Shown in pieces: positions 1 through 8,536 of a stretch of DNA of 8,536 nucleotides. The stretch is from a virus (lineage: Duplodnaviria > Heunggongvirae > Uroviricota > Caudoviricetes). The position numbers and the translations under genes are program-made. Position 1 is the first letter of the stretch. Each line of letters begins with the position of its first letter. The notes beneath the pieces are model-generated. The model searched no databases, was not told the DNA's origin, and saw only the letters and a program-made list of their open reading frames with translations. Where the stretch lies: IMG/VR virus record IMGVR_UViG_2737471865_000006, positions 1 to 8,536 of that record. One strand, 5' to 3'.

Positions 1-12
1 TTCACCGGATGC

Positions 13-699
13 TTACGTTTTATGTGCATGCAGCTCATCAATAATGGCGCAGTGGATGTTCAGACCATCCAGGTTGTTTGCATCCGAGGAAAGCGGTTCA
101 AATTTTGATGCGCTCTGCTCCTGGTAAATCGCCAGCTTGTTGAAATCAAACAACCGCCCGAGTGTCGACCGGGCTTTTCTGACCATATTTTTGGCGTCTT
201 CAAACACAATTCTGGCCTGGTCACGCGTGGTGGCGGCTGAATACACCTCAGCACCGCCTTCACCATCTGCCCCCGTCATATACAGGCCGATACCCGATGA
301 CAGAGTTGATTTTGCGTTTTTACGGGCGACTTCGTTGTACGCCGTCCGGAACCGGCGCACCATCACCGGACGTCCGCTGCCATCGCTGCGCATGACGACT
401 TCCCCGGTCTCTTCATTCACCAGCGGAATGACAAAACCAAAAATATTAATGAGGATAAATACATGCCAGTCCATCAGTTCAATGGGCTGGCCTGCCAGCG
501 CCCCTTTTACATGAGGCACAAATTTGTAGAAATTCAGGATGTGCTGCGCACGGGGTTCACTGAAATAAATCCCCCGCTCTTCGCCGTACTTCAGATCATC
601 AAGAAAACGCTGGCAGGCCAGGCGGACAAATTCGCCAGCAACAATTTCTCCTGCAACAACACGTTCGGCGTAGCGGATCCCGTCAGCCACTTTTGCCAT
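13..699 (-). CDS. Terminase large subunit, N-terminal ATPase region; frame closes with TAA at 13-15 after 228 codons
   Basis: Translation has a P-loop-like motif VARKNAKST and a Walker B-like motif CAIIDELHA. ATG at 697-699 overlaps the TGA stop of the upstream small terminase gene (TGATG). Full-length large terminases are roughly twice this length. Confidence 0.75.
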   Translation of the reverse strand: MAKVADGIRYAERVVAGEIVAGEFVRLACQRFLDDLKYGEERGIYFSEPRAQHILNFYKFVPHVKGALAGQPIELMDWHVFILINIFGFVIPLVNEETGEVVMRSDGSGRPVMVRRFRTAYNEVARKNAKSTLSSGIGLYMTGADGEGGAEVYSAATTRDQARIVFEDAKNMVRKARSTLGRLFDFNKLAIYQEQSASKFEPLSSDANNLDGLNIHCAIIDELHAHKT

Positions 700-1181
700 C
701 AGTCTCTCGCTTTTAAAAGCTCCGCCAGCGGATCAACATCATCCGGTCCGGCGATATTTACTTTAGCCCGGCTTGCCGGTGACATACCAAACTCTGCAAG
801 CATTGCCCGGATCCGCTTCCAGGCATCCGCTTTCATTGCCGCCGCGGGGTGCGCCTTAATCAGTACATCACCGCTCTGCGTTTCCGTGCGGTAGGTATAC
901 CCCTCAACATCGAGTGTTTCGCAGTGATGCCGATATTCGGTGTAGGCTTCCACCAGCAACTCGAGCGCACGCGCATCAAGCTGAGAAATGATCCCTTCCG
1001 CATTCAGCTCTTCCGCCATTCGCCTGAACCAGTACTTCCCCTGAGCCCCTAAATGCTGCGGAATTTTAGGAAGACCTTTTTCATCCTTTTTAGCGGTTTT
1101 TTTGTGGTCTTTAACGGGGCGCTTTGAGGGGTTGCCTCGAATCAAATGCAGGCGTGGCGGGGTTTTCGGAGGTCCTGACAT
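699..1181 (-). CDS. Terminase small subunit, P27 family
   Basis: 160 aa; basic N-terminal region followed by ...AWKRIRAMLAEFGMSPASRAKV, typical of P27-type small terminases; sits directly upstream of the large terminase with stop/start overlap. Confidence 0.8.
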   Translation of the reverse strand: MSGPPKTPPRLHLIRGNPSKRPVKDHKKTAKKDEKGLPKIPQHLGAQGKYWFRRMAEELNAEGIISQLDARALELLVEAYTEYRHHCETLDVEGYTYRTETQSGDVLIKAHPAAAMKADAWKRIRAMLAEFGMSPASRAKVNIAGPDDVDPLAELLKARD

Positions 1182-1329
1182 AATCGGTCTTACCTATCAA
1201 TCGTTTGTTCACATTTCCAAAAAAAAGTTTTCGAACCTGCGGCGATGTGAGGAAGGGTCAGGCGGCGGTACTGAGCAGCCAGGGTTGCAGAGATTTGACC
1301 CGCCCCTCCCTTACAGATTAGAACGATTA

Positions 1330-1680
1330 TCAGTTGATGCGTTCACGCGCTGTTTTCGCCTTGTGGCATGGCCAGCACAGGCTCTGCAGATTACCGTCTG
1401 CATCCGTACCGCCATGCGCTTTCGGAATGATGTGGTCCACAGTTCTGGCTTCAACGGCTCTCCCATTGCGCAGGCAGTTCTGACACAAATGATTATCACG
1501 CTTCAGTATGCGCGCACGTATGGCATCCCATTTCGAGCCATAGCCACGCTGGTGGCGGCTCAGTCCGCGTTGATGTTGTGTCCAACCTTCGCCGCGATGC
1601 TTATCGCAGTAGCCAGAACTGTCCGTCGTTGTGCCTGCACAGCCTCGCTTACGGCATGCACGAGGGATTTGTGATGGCAT
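1330..1680 (-). CDS. HNH endonuclease, packaging-associated
   Basis: Cys-rich N-terminus (CRKRGCAG...CDKH) and HNH core (DHIIPKAHGG...N...CWPCH). Start chosen at the ATG at 1678-1680, which has an AGGAG ribosome-binding site 9 nt upstream, rather than the ORF-track start at 1716. Position immediately before the small terminase matches HK97-type packaging modules. Confidence 0.8.
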   Translation of the reverse strand: MPSQIPRACRKRGCAGTTTDSSGYCDKHRGEGWTQHQRGLSRHQRGYGSKWDAIRARILKRDNHLCQNCLRNGRAVEARTVDHIIPKAHGGTDADGNLQSLCWPCHKAKTARERIN

Positions 1681-1722
1681 AGAATTTCGCTCCTCTAAAA
1701 AATATTCTGCTCTCACCGTCGG

Positions 1723-1905
1723 TCAGTTCTGCATACACTGCCGGACACTATCAACAATTTCACAGACCTGAGAAGCTGTATCGAAAAGCTGGCGCGCCTT
1801 ATCCAGGCTGACGCAGCCCACCAGGAAAAAAGGCACCAGTATCGCTACCAGTGCCCATTTCACCGCCGTTCGCGGCATTCTGTGTGTCCAGTGTTTTCGC
1901 GTCAT
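1723..1905 (-). CDS. Small lipoprotein, 60 aa, function unknown
   Basis: Basic N-region, hydrophobic core WALVAILVPFF and lipobox LVGC; GGTGGTGA ribosome-binding site before the ATG; short Cys-containing mature part. Not proline-rich like lambda Rz1. Confidence 0.5.
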   Translation of the reverse strand: MTRKHWTHRMPRTAVKWALVAILVPFFLVGCVSLDKARQLFDTASQVCEIVDSVRQCMQN

Positions 1906-1989
1906 ATCACCACCAACGCACAGCCCAAATCAGAACAGCGACCGCCACAAGGCGGATTGCAAAGGCCGTTGCCCGAATAAAATCAGCAC

Positions 1990-2187
1990 TCATCTGTTTA
2001 AATAAATTGTTGTGTATGCAACCAGTGCAGTACAAATAATCCATGCAACTGGCGTCAGTATATGTCTGATGCCCCGGCATACCGCGATGATTTTTGCGGC
2101 ATCATCAGCCCCCTGCGGGGTGGTTTCTGCTTTTATCATCAGATCATCTCCAAATTTATCTTTCGTCGTGTTAGGCTTTACTGGCAT
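1990..2187 (-). CDS. Hypothetical small protein with C-terminal transmembrane segment
   Basis: ATG at 2185-2187 preceded by GGGGA; C-terminal hydrophobic stretch PVAWIICTALVAYTTIY. No recognisable family; coding status uncertain. Confidence 0.3.
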   Translation of the reverse strand: MPVKPNTTKDKFGDDLMIKAETTPQGADDAAKIIAVCRGIRHILTPVAWIICTALVAYTTIYLNR

Positions 2188-2229
2188 GAATGATCCCCAT
2201 GCGCATTCACAAAATGAATCCATAAACAC

Positions 2230-2261
2230 AAAGCCCCGATTGCTCCAACAACCGGGGCTTT
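2230..2261 (-). terminator. Intrinsic terminator-like hairpin downstream of the endolysin gene
   Basis: Perfect 9-bp stem AAAGCCCCG / CGGGGCTTT (2230-2238 with 2253-2261) and a 14-nt loop; T-rich flank on both strands. Confidence 0.5.
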
Positions 2262-2268
2262 GCTTTAT

Positions 2269-2646
2269 TTATCGTTTCAACTGAAAGTGAGGCCCATCCT
2301 TTAATGACCGCCACTCACCGCCCCATTCGATGGGGGTATTCAGCTCTGCGGCAGCCTGCTTAAATGCCTGCGCTATTTTCTCATACAGAGGCAAGTCCCA
2401 TGACACCTGGCTGCCAACCCAGGCAACAACATCCACCGCATCACCGGTCAGGTGGCGGCTGTTCATGGTCTGGCTTTTCCCTTCCGCGACCAGCTGTTTC
2501 TGGCGTTCTTTCGTGCGCAGCCCTTCCGTAATACCGAAATCAACCTCCGTCAGCTCCAGCGCACGGCGAACGACAGCAACCAGCTGTGGTTTAACGCCCT
2601 CCAGATTCTTTTCGCTGCGACGACTGAATCTGAATTTACCCGACAT
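2269..2646 (-). CDS. Endolysin, peptidase M15 family (phage T5 Lys-like L-alanyl-D-glutamate peptidase)
   Basis: Motifs KFRFSRRSEKNLEGVKPQL, RRALEL, SRHLTGDAVDV (His...Asp zinc-ligand spacing) and a C-terminal His match the T5 endolysin pattern as recalled. ATG at 2644-2646 has GAGGTGA upstream and lies 2 nt after the stop of the preceding gene; a GTG at 2652 is an alternative start. Confidence 0.8.
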   Translation of the reverse strand: MSGKFRFSRRSEKNLEGVKPQLVAVVRRALELTEVDFGITEGLRTKERQKQLVAEGKSQTMNSRHLTGDAVDVVAWVGSQVSWDLPLYEKIAQAFKQAAAELNTPIEWGGEWRSLKDGPHFQLKR

Positions 2647-2648
2647 AT

Positions 2649-2924
2649 TCACCTCAACAATGGAAAGATTTTTGTGACGTTCCCGCGTGCGCGTATCACC
2701 AGCACGCAGAACAGCAGGTTAAAAAACACTTCCAGCCAGCCCGTTGCTAACGGGCGACCACACAGATAGCTGAGGGGCGCAAAGGCATACAGCAGCATCA
2801 GCAACCAGGCCAGCCATGACATCAGCGGTTTATGTCTGGAATCACGACGACGATAAAAAAAGAGCGTCAGCACGATAACCGTGCATAACGCCACATTCAG
2901 CAATCCGGGAAGGTTACTTAACAT
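2649..2924 (-). CDS. Small membrane protein in lysis cassette (holin/antiholin-like), about 91 aa
   Basis: ATG at 2922-2924 preceded by GGAGGAGG; three hydrophobic segments; overlaps the holin 3' end by 11 nt and is coupled to the endolysin start. Confidence 0.55.
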   Translation of the reverse strand: MLSNLPGLLNVALCTVIVLTLFFYRRRDSRHKPLMSWLAWLLMLLYAFAPLSYLCGRPLATGWLEVFFNLLFCVLVIRARGNVTKIFPLLR

Positions 2925-3306
2925 TGCCGCCTCCTCCACCCCGCAGGCGGGAGAACAGGCCGGACACCAGCGATGCAATATCCTGCTGGTGGATGAACGA
3001 GAGAATCTTCACCGACACCACCGCCACCAGCACCGCACACAGTGCATCCGCCGATGTACCGTCATAACCTGTTTTTGATGCAATCCAGGCTGACAGCACA
3101 TGCGCACCCAGCACGCCAACGATAAACGACACCAGAAAATGCGCCGCCACACGCCAGGCTGAAAGCGCCTGCGGCATCGTTGCCACAAATAACGCCCCAG
3201 CGAACGCCCCAAACACAATCCCGAAATCCGTTCCGGTAAACAGCCCGAATACCGTCGCCCCGCCGAGCGCCGCAGCCGTACCGGAACCGGACAAGGGTTC
3301 AGACAT
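2914..3306 (-). CDS. Putative holin, about 130 aa, multi-pass membrane protein
   Basis: ATG at 3304-3306 with AGGAG 7 nt upstream; Gly/Ala-rich hydrophobic helices; first gene of the lysis cassette, directly upstream of the endolysin. Confidence 0.6.
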   Translation of the reverse strand: MSEPLSGSGTAAALGGATVFGLFTGTDFGIVFGAFAGALFVATMPQALSAWRVAAHFLVSFIVGVLGAHVLSAWIASKTGYDGTSADALCAVLVAVVSVKILSFIHQQDIASLVSGLFSRLRGGGGGNVK

Positions 3307-3320
3307 ACTTTTTCTCCTGT

Positions 3321-3346
3321 AAATAAAAAAGGGCCACTGTCGGCCC
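3321..3346 (-). terminator. Intrinsic terminator immediately upstream of the holin ribosome-binding site
   Basis: Minus-strand RNA GGGCC-GACAGU-GGCCC followed by UUUUUUAUUU (3321-3330); the holin Shine-Dalgarno begins about 4 nt after the U-run. Confidence 0.55.
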
Positions 3347-3432
3347 GTAAAAAAACAACACCCCGTCAAAGGCACCCGCAGATACCTTTTGTGTGGTGTT
3401 ATCTGATGTGATGTGCGCCGGACGTGGCGCGG

Positions 3433-3460
3433 ATATAAAAAAGGCCCGCCGCAGCGAGCC
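3433..3460 (-). terminator. Intrinsic terminator downstream of the AraC-family gene
   Basis: Minus-strand RNA GGCUCGC-UGCG-GCGGGCC (7-bp stem including one G-U pair, tetraloop) followed by UUUUUUAUAU; about 25 nt after the stop at 3486. Confidence 0.6.
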
Positions 3461-3485
3461 TGTTTTCAATGAGTGCAAAATTCAA

Positions 3486-4229
3486 TTATTCTTGAGTAAC
3501 ACTTAAACTCATCTCATTGAATGCAGCCATCCTGTAACCTGCCGGTGTAACACCAAAATAACTCCTGAATACGCTGATAAAATAAGATGTAAAATTATAG
3601 CCACACTGAGCAGCGATTCTGTTGATGGCGCAACGAGATTGATTCAACAGCATTGCTGCCATTCTCATTCTCTCTGTAAGCAACAACTCACTGAAACAGG
3701 TGCCTTCTTCTTTCAGTCTTTTTTTTAACAAACTTTCACTGATACATAACCGCGAAGACACATCTCTCAGAGTCCAGTTTGCTGCAATGTCCGTACGAAA
3801 CAATGCACTAAGCCTGTCACTAATATTGCCAATACACGCGGTCAGAAACGACGAAAACATTTTCTCTGATGAGAAAAACGCCAGACACGAAAAGGAAAGC
3901 ATTTCCGCTAAATTGTCCGTATGAATCTTTTCCTCACAAAGATAATCAATCAGGATGCCCATCAATTCTGCCTTGGGAAAACTCACGCAAAGATATCGTG
4001 GTATTTGCCGGACTAAAACTACATCCTGTTTTTCGTCTCCACACAACAGGTAACGGATAATTGTCGATTCACTGAGACTTATTCGCCGAAAACATTCCGA
4101 AAAGGGCAATAACGATCCAGCTCCCCCCCTGACAAGAAGTGCACTACCACTTTCCAGAGAGAGCTCTTTTCCTTCAAAGAGCACAACAAACGGGGAATGA
4201 ACAAAAACAACAGAACAAGCTTCATTCAT
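3486..4229 (-). CDS. AraC/XylS-family transcriptional regulator, AppY/AdiY/GadX-like group
   Basis: C-terminal helix-turn-helix signature SESLLKKRLKEEGTCFSELLLTERMRMAAMLL...QCGYNFTSYFISVFRSYFGVTPAGYR; N-terminus MNEACSVVFV resembles the AppY family as recalled. Start set at the ATG at 4227-4229 (247 aa), not the TTG at 4289. Markedly AT-rich relative to flanking phage genes. Confidence 0.8.
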   Translation of the reverse strand: MNEACSVVFVHSPFVVLFEGKELSLESGSALLVRGGAGSLLPFSECFRRISLSESTIIRYLLCGDEKQDVVLVRQIPRYLCVSFPKAELMGILIDYLCEEKIHTDNLAEMLSFSCLAFFSSEKMFSSFLTACIGNISDRLSALFRTDIAANWTLRDVSSRLCISESLLKKRLKEEGTCFSELLLTERMRMAAMLLNQSRCAINRIAAQCGYNFTSYFISVFRSYFGVTPAGYRMAAFNEMSLSVTQE

Positions 4230-4262
4230 ATCAATTGCCCTGACATTACTGGTCACAAGATA

Positions 4263-4290
4263 AGTATATATCGATTTACAAAAATACAAG
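4263..4290 (-). promoter_or_regulatory. Candidate sigma70 promoter for the AraC-family gene
   Basis: Minus strand -35 CTTGTA (plus 4285-4290), 16-nt spacer, -10 TATACT (plus 4263-4268), about 30 nt upstream of the ATG. Match by eye only. Confidence 0.35.
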
Positions 4291-4350
4291 CCGAAAGACC
4301 AGTATTCGCAACCACCAGCGCGTTTAACGTCCTGTACCGTTTTTCAGGCA

Positions 4351-4377
4351 TAAAAAAACCCGCTCAGTGGCGGGTTT
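4351..4377 (-). terminator. Intrinsic terminator between the ORF6N gene and the AraC-family gene
   Basis: Minus-strand RNA AAACCCGC-CACUGA-GCGGGUUU followed by UUUUAUGCC; palindromic, so it could act in either direction. Confidence 0.55.
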
Positions 4378-4452
4378 AAGCTGTTTGGCGTAGTAACCAC
4401 TCTTAACAGGATATTCAACTTTTTACGATCGTAAAGCGTTCGGGGAAAATTT

Positions 4453-4758
4453 TTAAAACCGTTCCAGAGTGCATACCATCGCATCGGCGGGTAGTTTTTC
4501 CGTGAAGAGGATGAGGTGCTTTGTACGCGGTGCAACTAAGTTACTTTGAGTAACCTTGTTCTTAAATTCCCGCAACTCAGCCCCTTCCAATTTGAAGTAG
4601 TGTTTCCCACAAACAAAACGCTCGGCATTGCGTGTATAGTTCACTTTGATGTTATTAGTTTCGGTGCCATAAAGTTGTGCCAAAAGCTCGGTAGTAATGA
4701 CAGGGATTTGGTTATGGGTGATCGGGGAAAGAGTTTCAACTGAGATTTGAATAGCCAT
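4453..4758 (-). CDS. ORF6N-domain protein (phage antirepressor-like DNA-binding domain), possibly C-terminally truncated
   Basis: Motif LAQLYGTETNNIKVNYTRNAERFVCGKHYFKLEGAELREFKN ... LFTEK fits the ORF6N pattern; AAGGA ribosome-binding site 7 nt before the ATG; first ORF downstream of tR'. Confidence 0.5.
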   Translation of the reverse strand: MAIQISVETLSPITHNQIPVITTELLAQLYGTETNNIKVNYTRNAERFVCGKHYFKLEGAELREFKNKVTQSNLVAPRTKHLILFTEKLPADAMVCTLERF

Positions 4759-4911
4759 AGGATGATCCTTTTTCTATGTGAATCATCACCACTGCTGACG
4801 CCAATCAGTATGGTGGTGAACTGTGCAGGGTTGGCGTAACCGGGAAAAAGGAACCGGCGCGGATCGCTCCGCCCCCACACAGCCCACCATTGAGATGTGA
4901 CAGTGCAAACG

Positions 4912-4937
4912 ACAATAAAAAAGACGCTGGCGCGTCT
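4912..4937 (-). terminator. tR'-like terminator of the short late transcript
   Basis: Minus-strand RNA AGACGC-GCCA-GCGUCU followed by UUUUUAUUGUC, about 70-75 nt downstream of the predicted pR' start site. Confidence 0.55.
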
Positions 4938-4997
4938 GTTGTCGCCTTTTTCATCCGGGACGCCAATCCCGACGCCAGATTTTGCTGGCGCGTGAGG

Positions 4998-5027
4998 AAT
5001 ATAGCCCCGGACAATGTGTCTGGTCAA
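4998..5027 (-). promoter_or_regulatory. pR'-like late promoter immediately downstream of Q
   Basis: Minus strand -35 TTGACC (plus 5022-5027), 18-nt spacer, -10 TATATT (plus 4998-5003), starting 5 nt after the Q stop. The initial transcribed region has hairpins CGCCAG-N6-CTGGCG (4973-4990) and CGGGA-N6-TCCCG, as expected for a Q-utilisation/pause region. Confidence 0.5.
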
Positions 5028-5031
5028 GCTC

Positions 5032-5418
5032 CTACATGATTCGTTCTACGTATCTGTCCATCTCCAGTCGGATATCAAGCATCATCAACATGCCATCAAT
5101 AACCCCTTCCGCTTTCTGCAGGCGCTTGCCAATACAGGTATCCGAACACCCATGCTTTCGTGCCAACCCCATAAAAGTCATTCCACCTACGTAATAATCC
5201 ACCAACAAATCGTGCAAATCCTGATTTTTCTTGTTCAACCGGGCCATACAGCCACAAATTATCATTGCATCATCATCAGAACACTGAGGGCGTGATTTCA
5301 CTTTCGGCGGGATTAATCCTTTAAAACCAGCAGCGATTGACGCCCATGACACATCTTCGTGATTGTTCGCAGCCCATGCTCCCCACCGCTCCATAACCTG
5401 CTGAATATCACGCACCAT
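5032..5418 (-). CDS. Late-gene antiterminator Q (phage 82 / QuuD-like)
   Basis: [21 protein letters not shown]...[14 protein letters not shown]...LLVDYYV...[16 protein letters not shown] pattern of Q antiterminators. ATG at 5416-5418 with AGGTGA 5 nt upstream; overlaps the rusA 3' end. Confidence 0.85.
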
Positions 5419-5779
5419 CGTTATCACCTGTAATTTCGTAAATCTTCACGCCCAACCGCCCACCAGGAACAGGCAGTCCGCGCACAATATTGATTTCATC
5501 AAACTGCTCGTCGTCTATGAGAAGTCCGGCATGCGTCAGCGCATCCAGTGGTGCCTTCAGGATATTGTCCAGGTCGCGGCGGCGCTTATCCGGTGGCTCT
5601 GCAATAATTTTTATTGCCAGCCTTCCGGACAGGTTTAATTTCAACCGCTGCTGGCGAACAATTAGTGCCACATCACGGCGATAACGCTCCCCTGCTTTTG
5701 ATACAAAATATGTGTTGCCACGACGTCGCCAGTAAGTATTCACCGTCGGCGGATAAGGCAAAACAAACTCTATACGCAT
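5408..5779 (-). CDS. rusA: Holliday junction resolvase RusA
   Basis: [16 protein letters not shown]...[29 protein letters not shown] matches RusA conserved motifs; AAGAGG ribosome-binding site 7 nt upstream. Confidence 0.85.
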
Positions 5780-5791
5780 CAGTAACCTCTT

Positions 5792-6841
5792 TTACCCGAG
5801 CACGCCGGTTGCAAAGGCGTGATCAAGAAAACGAAAAATTAAATCAACCTGGGAACCATGCTTTTCTTCGAACGCCAGCGGATCCGCATGAAGTTCGTTG
5901 TGATGTTCCCGGCACAACGGTAGCGTGAAAATATCGTGGGCCTTTGTTCCCATCCCTCCCTGACCGTGACCAATCAGGTGATGGGGATCGTCGGCTGGCT
6001 GACCACAACACGCACACGGCTGTGTCTTCACCCAGCGCGTATATTTCTCATTTACCCAACGGCGACGTTTAGGTCGCCTCATGAAAGATTCCGGAGACTC
6101 CGGATCAACGGTGATGCATACCACCGTCTTTTCCTGTGGTGGGTTCTGTTGCTGGTGGGCATGAGGCAACGGCGCAAGATTTTTTGTGCGCTGCTTCAGT
6201 ATGCTGGTGGCGGTCTGCTCTCCCGGTACGATGTCGCTTTCGCGGTACAAGGAGCGGATTTTTTCCGCACGTAACCCCAGAGAACGACGTAATACTGCCT
6301 CCGGAAGCGCGTCCGCCACCTGATTGCAGACCGCCCACCAGGATAATTCAGCCAGCGACAATTCCCGCTCCTGCGTGCCATTCATTGCATGGCGTATGAC
6401 GTCAATCATCCATGCTGACAGGTTTTGATGAGCAAGTTGCCCGAGTGATTCGGATGTCTGGTCACGCAACTGGTTGTCGCAGTGCCAGCACAACACCATC
6501 GCGCCGGTACCGTAACGATGTATGACGATTTCACTGTGATGATAGTCACCATGAGGCCACTGGCAGGATTTGACATGACGCAACAGCCAGTCAGACAGTG
6601 CCCCAGCGCCGCCAGCAGCACGAATCACCCGCTCATCGCTGAAAAATGGCAGTAATGATTTATCCTCCGCCAGCGGCTGGCGAACGGCAGGGACGACTCC
6701 GGACGGCAGACCGCGCATGCTTTTCGGTTCAGGCTCCACCAGCACTCGAGGGTTATGAAATACTTGCATGGATTCACGGCCCGGCCTAAGGACCACCAGC
6801 CCGAGTTCCGGTACCAGAACAGGTCGAAGTAATATCCGCAC
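5792..6841 (-). CDS. DUF968-like prophage protein (YdfU-like) with C-terminal Cys/His HNH-like motif
   Basis: Large nin-region ORF with C-terminal CACCGQPADDPHHLIGHGQGGMGTKAHDIF...CREHHNELH. Start proposed at the GTG at 6839-6841, which has GGAGGT upstream and follows the upstream gene's TAA by 1 nt, giving 349 aa. The ORF-track start at 6913 would overlap the upstream gene. Confidence 0.6.
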   Translation of the reverse strand: MRILLRPVLVPELGLVVLRPGRESMQVFHNPRVLVEPEPKSMRGLPSGVVPAVRQPLAEDKSLLPFFSDERVIRAAGGAGALSDWLLRHVKSCQWPHGDYHHSEIVIHRYGTGAMVLCWHCDNQLRDQTSESLGQLAHQNLSAWMIDVIRHAMNGTQERELSLAELSWWAVCNQVADALPEAVLRRSLGLRAEKIRSLYRESDIVPGEQTATSILKQRTKNLAPLPHAHQQQNPPQEKTVVCITVDPESPESFMRRPKRRRWVNEKYTRWVKTQPCACCGQPADDPHHLIGHGQGGMGTKAHDIFTLPLCREHHNELHADPLAFEEKHGSQVDLIFRFLDHAFATGVLG

Positions 6842-6842
6842 G

Positions 6843-7121
6843 TTACCTCCAGATCCGTTGCTGGTATGTGCGGGATGGGCGCGGTGGGCGTTCGGAATAA
6901 GGGAGCCTGACATAGATTATCCAGTGACGATAATCGAGGCTGAGGGCTTTCTTAATCTCGTATCCGCGTCTGCGATAGTTATGAATTAGCCATTCGGCCT
7001 GTTCTTCAGTACATGGGTCATGCTGGAACCAGTCAGATTTGAAAGTGCGGGAACGCCGCCCGTGCCTGCTGGCAAAGACGGCAGAATCATCAGAATTGTG
7101 TAATTTGGTATCGTGCGCCAT
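6843..7121 (-). CDS. Hypothetical small basic protein, 92 aa, upstream of the DUF968 gene
   Basis: ATG at 7119-7121; ORF-track start at 7202 rejected because it overlaps the terminator at 7194-7218; stop is translationally coupled to the DUF968 start. No recognisable family. Confidence 0.45.
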   Translation of the reverse strand: MAHDTKLHNSDDSAVFASRHGRRSRTFKSDWFQHDPCTEEQAEWLIHNYRRRGYEIKKALSLDYRHWIIYVRLPYSERPPRPSRTYQQRIWR

Positions 7122-7193
7122 CGGTTGTCTCTGCTGGCGCAGCAGGTGCCAGTTGTTCAGGCTGGCGTGCGAATTGTAAACCAGAATGCCAGG

Positions 7194-7218
7194 AAAAAAC
7201 AAAAACCGCCGAAGCGGG
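7194..7218 (-). terminator. Intrinsic terminator with UUCG tetraloop
   Basis: Minus-strand RNA CCGC-UUCG-GCGG followed by UUUUUGUUUUUU. Confidence 0.55.
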
Positions 7219-7417
7219 TATGCTAAAACAAACTGAAAGTAATATACCGGACTTGTAAAGGAACGATAGAATAATTATTGGATTAAACCCTGACTCAATC
7301 CAGATTTCATAGGCAACAACTACGGACTAATCATCACAGTCATGTTTGATAGACTTAGTCCACATTGGGTGAGGGTTTACGGCGTTTTCACTAATAATTT
7401 ATCGTCCAAGCTATACA

Positions 7418-7810
7418 CTACTGCCCTGTTTTAACGAAGTTTTTAAAGGAAACAACTGCCTGATAGGGGTTTGGTTGACAGCCAAACATATTATCGCAAA
7501 AAGGCTTGATGAAAATTCTTGAGGATCCATCTTCATTTGGCATTTTACTCACTTGATAAGCGAGGAATGGACTATTTGGAGAGGGATTATAAGTGGAAAT
7601 TAGCGTGTCTGTCGCCGTTTGAATTTTCCATGAGGAATTATTAGCCAACCAGAATTGCGCTCGTTTCCAATAAAAGTCACATTGCTTTTCATCATTACAT
7701 GTTAGTGGCTTCATTGCTTCTGCTTTCAACGCTGGATCGACCTTTGCTGCACACCCTCCCAACATTACTGTTGCAATCATTACACCTGCGACTAAAACAA
7801 GTTTCTTCAT
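7418..7810 (-). CDS. Secreted lipoprotein, 130 aa, unknown function (AT-rich cargo gene)
   Basis: Signal peptide MKKLVLVAGVMIATVMLGGC with lipobox LGGC; four further Cys in the mature part; lower GC than flanking genes; bracketed by terminators on both sides. Confidence 0.7.
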   Translation of the reverse strand: MKKLVLVAGVMIATVMLGGCAAKVDPALKAEAMKPLTCNDEKQCDFYWKRAQFWLANNSSWKIQTATDTLISTYNPSPNSPFLAYQVSKMPNEDGSSRIFIKPFCDNMFGCQPNPYQAVVSFKNFVKTGQ

Positions 7811-7861
7811 CTCCCTGCCCCATCAATAAAAGTTCGGTTCTCTAATAACTAGAGTTAATCA

Positions 7862-7884
7862 ACGGAAAAAACGCCGAAGCGGGT
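7862..7884 (-). terminator. Terminator-like hairpin downstream of hok
   Basis: Minus-strand RNA CCGC-UUCG-GCG followed by UUUUUUCCG, about 70 nt after the hok stop; short stem; nearly identical in sequence to the 7194-7218 element. Confidence 0.45.
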
Positions 7885-7953
7885 TAAGTGCGGGTGCGTT
7901 GAGGATGCCTGACACATCAGAGGTGGCGAGGGATTTCTCCCCCGCCAGGTCTC

Positions 7954-8109
7954 TTACTCCTCAGGTTCGTAAGCTGTGAAGACAGCGACCTCCGTCTGGC
8001 CGGTTCGGATTCGTACCTCGCAGAGGTCTTTCCTCGTTACCAGTGCCGTCACAATGACGGTTAAACAGATGACGATCAGGGCGATTAACATCGCCTTTTG
8101 CTGCTTCAT
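7954..8109 (-). CDS. hok: Hok/Gef-family type I toxin (small membrane-depolarising peptide)
   Basis: 51 aa MKQQKAMLIALIVICLTVIVTALVTRKDLCEVRIRTGQTEVAVFTAYEPEE, which matches HokD/HokC (Gef) as recalled; ATG at 8107-8109 with AAGGAG 8 nt upstream. Confidence 0.85.
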   Translation of the reverse strand: MKQQKAMLIALIVICLTVIVTALVTRKDLCEVRIRTGQTEVAVFTAYEPEE

Positions 8110-8166
8110 AGCCTGCTTCTCCTTGCCTTTCGGCACGTAAGAGGCTAACCTAGATTTGCCGTTCAT
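7954..8166 (-). CDS. mok: Mok-like overlapping reading frame (in-frame N-terminally extended Hok)
   Basis: In-frame 19-codon extension MNGKSRLASYVPKGKEKQA upstream of hok, ATG at 8164-8166 with GAGG 9 nt upstream; same arrangement as mokC/hokC as recalled. Confidence 0.55.
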   Translation of the reverse strand: MNGKSRLASYVPKGKEKQAMKQQKAMLIALIVICLTVIVTALVTRKDLCEVRIRTGQTEVAVFTAYEPEE

Positions 8167-8230
8167 AGATTGAGCCTCAGATTAATGTTAAGCGTCTTGC
8201 AGGACGCGTAATGTTAACTGGGGCTTTTCT

Positions 8231-8266
8231 CTATCTGCCTTTGGTGTTCATGCCTGAGGCAGATAG
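8231..8266. repeat. Perfect 10-bp inverted repeat in the hok leader region
   Basis: CTATCTGCCT (8231-8240) and AGGCAGATAG (8257-8266) with a 16-nt loop. Adjacent are two TAATGTTAA direct repeats (8183-8191 and 8209-8217) flanking the hairpin GCGTC-N6-GACGC (8192-8207). Confidence 0.6.
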
Positions 8267-8465
8267 CCTCAAGCACCCGCAGCAATTCTACTTAACTCAC
8301 CTCACCTCGCCAATATAAAATCAATCAGAAAGGCGATCCATAAGAACAACAGCAAGGCAATAAATTGCCATTACAGCGTAAGCATCCGGTGAAGGCGCAT
8401 TGCCGGCCGTCGTAAACCACGCCATTCTGCAGGCTCTTCCTTTATATGCAAAAGTGAGAAACCTG

Positions 8466-8536
8466 ATGGCAAAAAAAATGACCCCGGCGCAGCGACGCCA
8501 GCACTACGACGCCTGGCGCGCCTTCTCCGCTGACGA
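8466..8536 (+). CDS. 5' end of an unidentified plus-strand gene running off the window
   Basis: ATG at 8466 then MAKKMTPAQRRQHYDAWRAFSAD with no stop before the window end; divergent from hok. Only 23 codons visible; weak ribosome-binding site. Confidence 0.3.
   Translation, partial: MAKKMTPAQRRQHYDAWRAFSAD

Follow-up and report, generated by a model that had tools for sequence, protein, structure and literature searches.

An AraC-family regulator of the AppY/PatE clade lies downstream of a late promoter homolog in the Q–holin interval of a lambdoid Escherichia coli prophage

Prophage-encoded AraC-like regulators such as AppY, PatE and PsrA/B tap the acid-resistance and virulence regulons of their hosts, and it is textbook knowledge for the Shiga toxin genes (stx) that accessory genes situated between the antiterminator gene Q and the holin can be transcribed both on their own and by Q-dependent read-through. 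We analyzed a stretch of 8,536 nt from a tailed phage (IMG/VR record IMGVR_UViG_2737471865_000006, positions 1 to 8,536; hereafter the window), in which a gene for an AraC-family regulator lies between Q and the holin genes. An earlier note on this DNA, made from its sequence alone, had described a pR'-like promoter and a tR'-like terminator directly after Q and, behind them, an ORF6N-domain gene and the regulator as cargo of the late operon, in the slot that carries stx in Shiga toxin (Stx) phages. Our comparisons leave the regulator in this slot, downstream of a homolog of an experimentally mapped pR', and assign the promoter, the terminator and the ORF6N gene to the remains of an antirepressor operon.

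Organization of the locus

The window holds the late-control region of a lambdoid E. coli prophage, whose antiterminator is of the Q933 type. Its minus strand carries every gene, and in the order of transcription these are a hok/sok locus, an AT-rich lipoprotein-like open reading frame (ORF), a DUF968 gene, a RusA gene, Q, the ORF6N gene, the AraC-family gene, two holin genes, an M15 endolysin gene, an HNH endonuclease gene and the terminase genes (Table 1). The AT-rich character ascribed earlier to the regulator gene holds, with a GC content of 0.39–0.44 across positions 3300–4650 versus 0.53–0.60 in the flanks. Four canonical intrinsic terminators, T1 to T4, are found on the coding strand, all of them intergenic and with hairpin energies of -9.3 to -16.4 kcal/mol; the scan returned 6 terminator-like sites as compared to 1.9 ± 1.3 expected from shuffled sequences. 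No tRNA genes were found in the window.

Table 1. Positions of the features discussed in the text, in the order of transcription
Feature	Position	Strand	Characteristics
sok RNA	8104-8278	-	Rfam, 111.7 bits
Mok/Hok ORF	7954-8166	-	PF01848
Antiterminator Q, Q933/QuuD type	5032-5427	-	PF06530, E 2.5e-52; PHROG 79
P_isrK promoter	4998-5027	-	-35 TTGACC, 18-nt spacer, -10 TATATT; 10/12 positions in scan
C4 a1/b1 targets	4952-5004	-	RF03163, 52.2 bits (gathering 46.7); overlaps IsrK
IsrK-family small RNA including its own terminator (T1, stem 4937-4922)	4917-4991	-	RF01394, 79.4 bits (gathering 50), full-length 1-77
C4-family antisense RNA, antirepressor leader	4809-4894	-	RF01695, 74 bits (gathering 45), full-length 1-87
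Truncated antirepressor, ORF6N N-terminal domain only	4453-4758	-	PF10543; 101 aa
3'-end relic of a Q933-type Q gene with overlapping pR' homolog	4401-4452	-	stop TAA 4425-4423
pR' homolog	4435-4408	-	-35 TTTACG 4435-4430, 16-nt spacer, -10 TATCCT 4413-4408; inferred start near 4401
T2, first intrinsic terminator of the late leader	4356-4377	-	8-bp stem, U7; -12 kcal/mol, z -3.1
Conserved 5' region of the regulator	4230-4355	-	candidate weak promoter TTGTAT 4289-4284, 15-nt spacer, TATACT 4268-4263
AraC/XylS-family regulator, YdeO/AppY/PatE clade, intact	3486-4229	-	247 aa; PF12833, PF00165
T3, terminator after the regulator	3442-3461	-	-16.4 kcal/mol, z -4.25
T4, holin-module terminator, 25 nt upstream of the holin start	3331-3346	-	-10.8 kcal/mol
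First holin of the lysis cassette	2914-3306	-	start ATG 3306; PF16931; PHROG 198 holin
Second holin	2649-2978	-	downstream of the first holin
M15 endolysin	2269-2652	-	downstream of the holins

An intact regulator related to PatE, YdeO and AppY

PatE (ECs0287/Z0321), AppY and YdeO are YdeO/GadX-like AraC regulators of E. coli, of which PatE and AppY are prophage-encoded. The regulator of the window falls into the same length class and shares with them full-length similarity, an N-terminal CSV motif and a dual helix-turn-helix (HTH), and like them it is encoded by an AT-rich, horizontally acquired gene. In BLASTP alignments of about 232 residues that include the N-terminal domain, it is 38.9% identical to PatE (ECs0287), 36.5% to YdeO and 30.5% to AppY, which bears out its earlier description as AppY-like. 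The product is no degraded fragment deprived of its HTH, an outcome that the earlier note had considered: the dual HTH is complete, with PF12833 covered from position 2 to 78 of 80 (E 1.4e-13) and PF00165 matched in two stretches. The best NCBIfam model is YdeO, to which residues 2–230 align with positions 2–228 of 253, followed by GadX and HilD. Since the score for YdeO (146.9 bits) remains below the equivalog cut-off of 348, the regulator represents a lineage distinct from YdeO, GadX and HilD, and its identity to PatE, AppY and YdeO is below 40% throughout. It belongs to PHROG 1450 over its full length (E 1.8e-55) and is identical to WP_001345622.1; an indexed protein search returned close relatives only, none with an informative name.

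K169 of the regulator, within the motif SESLLKK, is equivalent to K170 of AppY and is invariant in an alignment of seven proteins, and the K170E exchange in AppY abolishes DNA binding (PMC10057817). The ratio of nonsynonymous to synonymous substitutions (dN/dS) is 0.30 in comparison with a lineage of 86% identity, indicative of purifying selection. The conservation extends upstream of the gene, where the 70 nt or so in front of the ATG hardly vary among lineages whose proteins are 74–86% identical and are more conserved than the coding sequence itself. Of the promoter and terminator of its own that had been attributed to the regulator, the terminator is present as T3, while the promoter proposed at 4263–4290 lies below the threshold of our scan in spite of this nearly invariant stretch.

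A homolog of the mapped Q933-type pR' precedes the regulator

In prophage Sp5 of E. coli Sakai, Sy et al. determined the start of the pR' transcript by differential RNA sequencing (dRNA-seq) and the 3' end at tR' by Term-seq, 258 nt apart (PMC7547250). Their coordinates were moved to NC_002695.2, with the 142-nt offset confirmed by the position of the terminator. Transferred in this way, the Sp5 pR' start lies 22 nt after the Q stop codon and 7 nt downstream of the element TTTACG-16-TATCAT. The corresponding element of the window is found about 600 bp past the promoter that directly follows Q. It is part of a segment (4352–4435) whose counterpart in Stx2a and Stx1c phages follows Q directly and shares 82% identity with it, and in four Q933-type contexts the -10 hexamer of the element varies at positions 4–5 only (TATCAT, TATCCT, TATGCT and TATGAT). 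As a relic of the final codons and the stop codon of a Q933-type gene is found in the same segment, the antirepressor module described below lies between the body of Q and the original 3' end of the gene. The Q protein of the window is 80.8% identical to Sp5 Q over 125 amino acids, departing from it only in the C-terminal tail, and 82.5% identical to Q of the isolated phage Lambda_2G7a, which likewise has 125 amino acids and the same end point.

A second lineage (L060) carries the same unit of pR', T2 and regulator 1.66 kb away from its Q933-like Q, with DNA between Q and pR' that differs and matches nothing in the segment of the window. This layout indicates that pR' stays with the late operon and that insertions build up between Q and pR'. 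By homology to the mapped Sp5 promoter, the regulator would thus lie immediately downstream of pR', in the path of the late transcript. The ORF6N gene, which the earlier note had also counted as late-operon cargo, is located upstream of the pR' homolog and therefore does not belong to this cargo.

The borders of the regulator module are homologous to those of the stx slot

The core of T2, AACCCGCC..GCGGGTTTTTT, is invariant in six contexts, namely behind Q933-type, 21-like and DUF1133 antiterminators and in an Stx2k phage. Homology of the regulator module begins exactly at T2 behind the 21-like Q (L009), the DUF1133 protein (L010) and the Q933-type Q, and each of these contexts has a promoter-like sequence of its own upstream of T2. 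Judged by these alignments, the regulator modules have their left boundary in common, at T2. In a lineage with a regulator of 74% identity (L064), an unrelated hairpin terminator (around 5860–5900) occupies the position of T2 and is followed by the conserved 5' region; here, as far as the alignment tells, the position is kept and the sequence is not.

Sp5 possesses a T2 homolog as well (L012, 870–895), a canonical-looking hairpin with U7 at +25 to +50 of the pR' transcript. The 258-nt precursor of the small RNA StxS spans this homolog, which must therefore be read through at least partly in Sp5. T2 had been considered as the tR' of the window; this assignment was dropped owing to the read-through of the Sp5 homolog, and we refer to T2 as the first terminator of the late leader instead. 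Only about the first 50 nt of the StxS precursor have a homolog in the window, the intervening 200 nt being absent.

On the other side of the regulator, positions 3403–3462, comprising T3 and the next 40 nt or so, show about 80% identity to a hairpin segment located between the argO tRNA gene and stx2A, with matches in an Stx2a phage (L002, 6–65), an Stx2 phage (L003, 714–771) and an Stx2k phage (L008, 4507–4564). Positions 3201–3350, which include T4, share 92.7% identity with the Stx2k phage, in which the matching segment lies upstream of the holin. Hence, the earlier proposal that the regulator sits in the slot of stx is supported by the homology of the borders on both sides. Compared to the order Q–pR'–tR'–tRNAs–stx–holin of Stx phages, the window has the same type of Q (81% at the amino acid level), a homologous pR' segment with its first hairpin and, as T3, the hairpin segment found immediately upstream of stx2A, but it lacks the toxin, the tRNAs, the 74-nt 3' part of StxS and also the tR' that Sp5 has at +258. 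Aligned in this manner, the regulator occupies the site of the StxS 3' part and the tRNAs in Sp5, whereas the place of stx itself would be between T3 and T4.

The T3-type hairpin is also present between argO and stx2A in Sakai Sp5 (L012, 1530–1560), and it occurs twice in L060 (6770–6792 and 7541–7563), at positions matching those that bracket a tRNA-Gly cargo in L020. Terminator hairpins seem to mark the junctions of cargo exchange in the Q–holin slot.

The promoter and terminator directly after Q belong to an IsrK/C4 leader

Between Q and the ORF6N gene, an IsrK-family RNA, the C4 a1/b1 targets and a C4-family RNA follow each other in order and full-length, all above the gathering scores of Rfam. 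The promoter that directly follows Q, P_isrK, is the sole match of at least 9/12 positions in the region; its -10 element ends 7 nt 5' of the start of the IsrK model match, and a terminator follows 60 nt downstream. The segment 5014–4661 is 92% identical to the antirepressor module in the nin region of Stx2a phages, where it adjoins NinE and lies upstream of both the antirepressor gene and Q, not after Q. In the modules of two Stx2a phages the promoter is conserved as TTGAC(G/C)-18-TATATT, and the T1 stem differs from phage to phage by a compensatory change (AGACGC/GCGTCT versus ACACGC/GCGTGT). After the related Q genes of Sp5, an Stx1c phage and Lambda_2G7a, the promoter and terminator of positions 5027–4915 were not found, these sites being taken by other sequence. 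Since Stx phages have promoter and leader ahead of Q, in their nin region, these elements are not tied to Q. A promoter and a terminator thus do follow Q directly, as previously noted, with a 10/12 match and a canonical hairpin; by homology they are, in place of pR' and tR', the IsrK promoter and terminator in the leader of an antirepressor operon. A strong promoter and terminator right after Q can hence be an IsrK/C4 antirepressor leader, which calls for caution in annotating pR' and tR'.

The gene order matches that of Gifsy-1 in Salmonella, antQ (Q-like)–isrK–orf45–anrP (antirepressor), in which the isrK promoter yields a short RNA and a read-through mRNA (PMC4825925). As in Gifsy-1 and in the immI region of P1 (c4-icd-ant), the Q-like gene leads directly into a promoter, behind which come an IsrK RNA that has a terminator of its own, C4-type elements and the ORF of an antirepressor. 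Unlike in these systems, the antirepressor of the window is a 101-residue fragment, and no orf45-type ORF was seen over its start. The fragment matches residues 1–90 of anti-repressor PHROGs (187–268 amino acids), and by comparison with the intact antirepressor of an Stx1c phage (about 221 amino acids) the C-terminal domain is missing. In 12 RefSeq relatives, the NCBI Prokaryotic Genome Annotation Pipeline (PGAP) calls a longer version of the gene a pseudogene with missing C-terminus, and relative to all 12 of these full-length relatives the window has lost a further 183 bp in frame between 10-bp direct repeats (4498–4507). Three findings, namely the truncated reading frame, its annotation as a pseudogene in relatives and the additional deletion, point to the ORF being a relic of an antirepressor, whose function has probably been lost. 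The 183-bp loss represents a second step of decay in an antirepressor that was already truncated. A functional small DNA-binding protein was considered for this ORF too and is disfavored on the same three grounds.

The regulator recurs between antiterminator and holin

In the earlier note, the placement of a regulator of this family in the Q-dependent late transcript was not known to be described. The arrangement is not unusual: 65 of 5,426 complete E. coli genomes carry the regulator gene at a coverage of at least 80%, with cattle, pigs and Shiga toxin-producing E. coli (STEC) accounting for many of the genomes. In all seven annotated contexts (L001, L009, L010, L011, L018, L019 and L020), an antiterminator, the regulator and a holin follow each other on the same strand, accompanied by varying co-cargo (tRNA-Arg, tRNA-Gly, TerB/DUF3927, DUF4145, DUF6731 or the ORF6N relic). 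Among 44 IMG/VR loci with an ortholog, 41 have an antiterminator upstream and 40 a holin downstream, always on the same strand. The 41 antiterminators comprise 13 of the Q933 type together with the ORF6N relic, 1 Q933-like protein (80% identity), 21 DUF1133 proteins, 3 21-like proteins and 3 of a fourth Q type. Conservation of the layout seen in the window extends to 12 genomes and 13 IMG/VR loci, and the regulator also occurs ahead of class II holins. As far as genome comparison goes, these data show one regulator lineage to be a regular resident of the Q–holin interval, mostly in livestock-associated E. coli and in some STEC, behind four types of antiterminator.

Paralogs with 36–37% identity are located in the Q–holin interval of isolated temperate coliphages of the Lambda_2G7a group. 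The regulators of Lambda_2G7a, 1H12 and Lambda_ev likewise belong to PHROG 1450 and are encoded on the late strand between Q and holin; they differ, besides their low identity, in their co-cargo (blc, ybgA) and in the class of the holin. In phiSTEC1575-Stx2k, a paralogous regulator takes part in the order Q, regulator, tRNAs, stx2k, holin. PatE-type genes are situated between the tail-fibre assembly gene and a following IS2 fragment, as is AppY in DLP12, so that PatE and AppY stand at the tail-fibre end of their prophages, unlike the regulator of the window. In one locus (L096, 6001–7128), a regulator with 84% identity to PatE is encoded directly upstream of a class II holin instead of at the tail-fibre end, so that entry into the late slot has occurred at least once in the PatE lineage, too. 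A homolog in a P1-like phage is irrelevant to the question of the slot. In a search for the positions of psrA and psrB, no AraC-family gene was found annotated in the part of Sakai Sp6 that was examined, nor at positions 1,625,000–1,672,000 of EDL933, a region that includes the prophage with nleL/espN (OI-50 effectors). A full-text literature search of limited coverage returned no description of an AraC-type regulator family in the Q–holin late slot.

Proposed expression of the regulator and alternative explanations

We favor, with a probability of roughly 0.65, an arrangement in which a truncated IsrK/C4 antirepressor operon lies between Q and pR', followed by T2, the intact regulator, T3/T4 and the holin, and in which read-through by Q co-transcribes the regulator with the late genes; the mosaic of modules is what the alignments display, and the activity of pR', the Q read-through and the regulon are inferred. 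In the lysogen, T2 would shield the regulator from upstream transcription and T3/T4 the lysis genes from transcription of the regulator, which might be expressed at a low level, either from its conserved 5' region, by a weak promoter situated there, or through leakage past T2. Upon induction, RNA polymerase modified by Q would start from pR' and pass T2, the regulator, T3 and T4 into the lysis genes, and would thereby bring the regulator into the late transcript. Its targets, to judge from its family, may be H-NS-silenced, GAD-type acid-resistance promoters of the host. If Q read-through or leakage from pR' indeed controls the regulator, this would couple stress regulons of the host to prophage state.

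Several observations weigh against this interpretation. The -10 element of the window pR', TATCCT, is weaker than TATCAT of Sp5, and the -10-like TACATT found at +7 to +12 in Sp5 reads TACTAC in the window, by which the loading of Q could be impaired. The second terminator, which Term-seq identified as tR' at +258 in Sp5, is absent from the window, and T2, instead of being a true tR', may terminate leakily. The candidate promoter of the regulator, with its 15-nt spacer, does not reach the threshold of the promoter scan, and the regulon is a guess because the identity to characterized regulators amounts to only 30–39%.

In lysogens of the Sakai Stx phages, transcription from the Q933-type pR' is constitutive. 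Since, in addition, the T2 homolog is read through in Sp5, pR' itself could be the source of a basal level of regulator in lysogens, with Q raising this level sharply on induction and the dose of the regulator reporting the state of the prophage. We regard this extended version as unlikely.

Among the alternatives, the strongest treats the regulator purely as a lysogenic-conversion gene under its own or an activator-dependent promoter, the slot being a by-product of recombination and Q-driven expression shortly before lysis being without a role. The conserved 5' region moves together with the gene, terminators flank it on both sides, and the slot is a hot spot for cargo (tRNAs, TerB/DUF3927, DUF4145 and DUF6731 genes) with hairpins recurring at the module junctions; moreover, the characterized AppY and PatE, encoded at the tail-fibre end, act in lysogens (PMC10057817). 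This explanation is quite possible, if short of probable, since the ortholog group keeps the late slot and its orientation behind four antiterminator types (41/44 IMG/VR loci and 7/7 annotated genomes). Such fidelity hints that position or orientation matters, but linkage to the holin module could also explain it.

Alternatively, late control could have decayed, with the tail of Q changed, pR' displaced and weakened and the antirepressor broken, leaving a cryptic prophage in which the regulator is the sole function under selection. The antirepressor, truncated and then deleted further, would fit such a history, as would the differences from Sp5 in the -10 and pause-like elements. However, the isolated phage Lambda_2G7a has a Q of the same length and end point, the lysis, terminase, portal and protease genes are intact both in the window and in L001, and the layout has been conserved across the genomes and IMG/VR loci counted above, which makes general decay improbable. 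We consider it even more doubtful that the regulator serves the phage itself, for instance by tuning the timing of lysis or the late or immunity genes: in most contexts it is tightly linked to a PF16931 holin cassette, but it is found ahead of class II holins too, no candidate phage target was identified in the present analysis, and its closest characterized relatives all act on acid-resistance promoters of the host (PMC10057817; PMC10877973). Finally, that 5027–4998 is pR' and 4937–4922 is tR', with ORF6N and regulator both Q-dependent late cargo, is very unlikely despite the singular promoter match right after Q and its nearby terminator, because the transcript starting there would match IsrK over its full length, with C4 elements behind it, this promoter and its leader occur beside NinE upstream of Q in Stx phages, and a separate homolog of the mapped pR' exists at 4435–4408.

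Further features of the window

The lysis cassette downstream of the regulator matches PF16931, PF05449 and PF13539. It is followed by the HNH endonuclease gene (1330–1716, minus strand), which adjoins the gene for a P27-family small terminase subunit (699–1181, minus strand) in the HNH–terminase pairing usual for packaging. At the opposite end of the window, in the nin region, lies a complete toxin-antitoxin locus of the hok/sok type (7954–8278, minus strand), and hokD is placed likewise in related prophages. The AT-rich ORF at 7418–7810 (minus strand; GC about 0.39–0.41) encodes 130 amino acids with a lipoprotein-like signal (MLGGCAAK) and does not match any Pfam family. Situated between hok and the DUF968 gene, it probably represents a second accessory gene.

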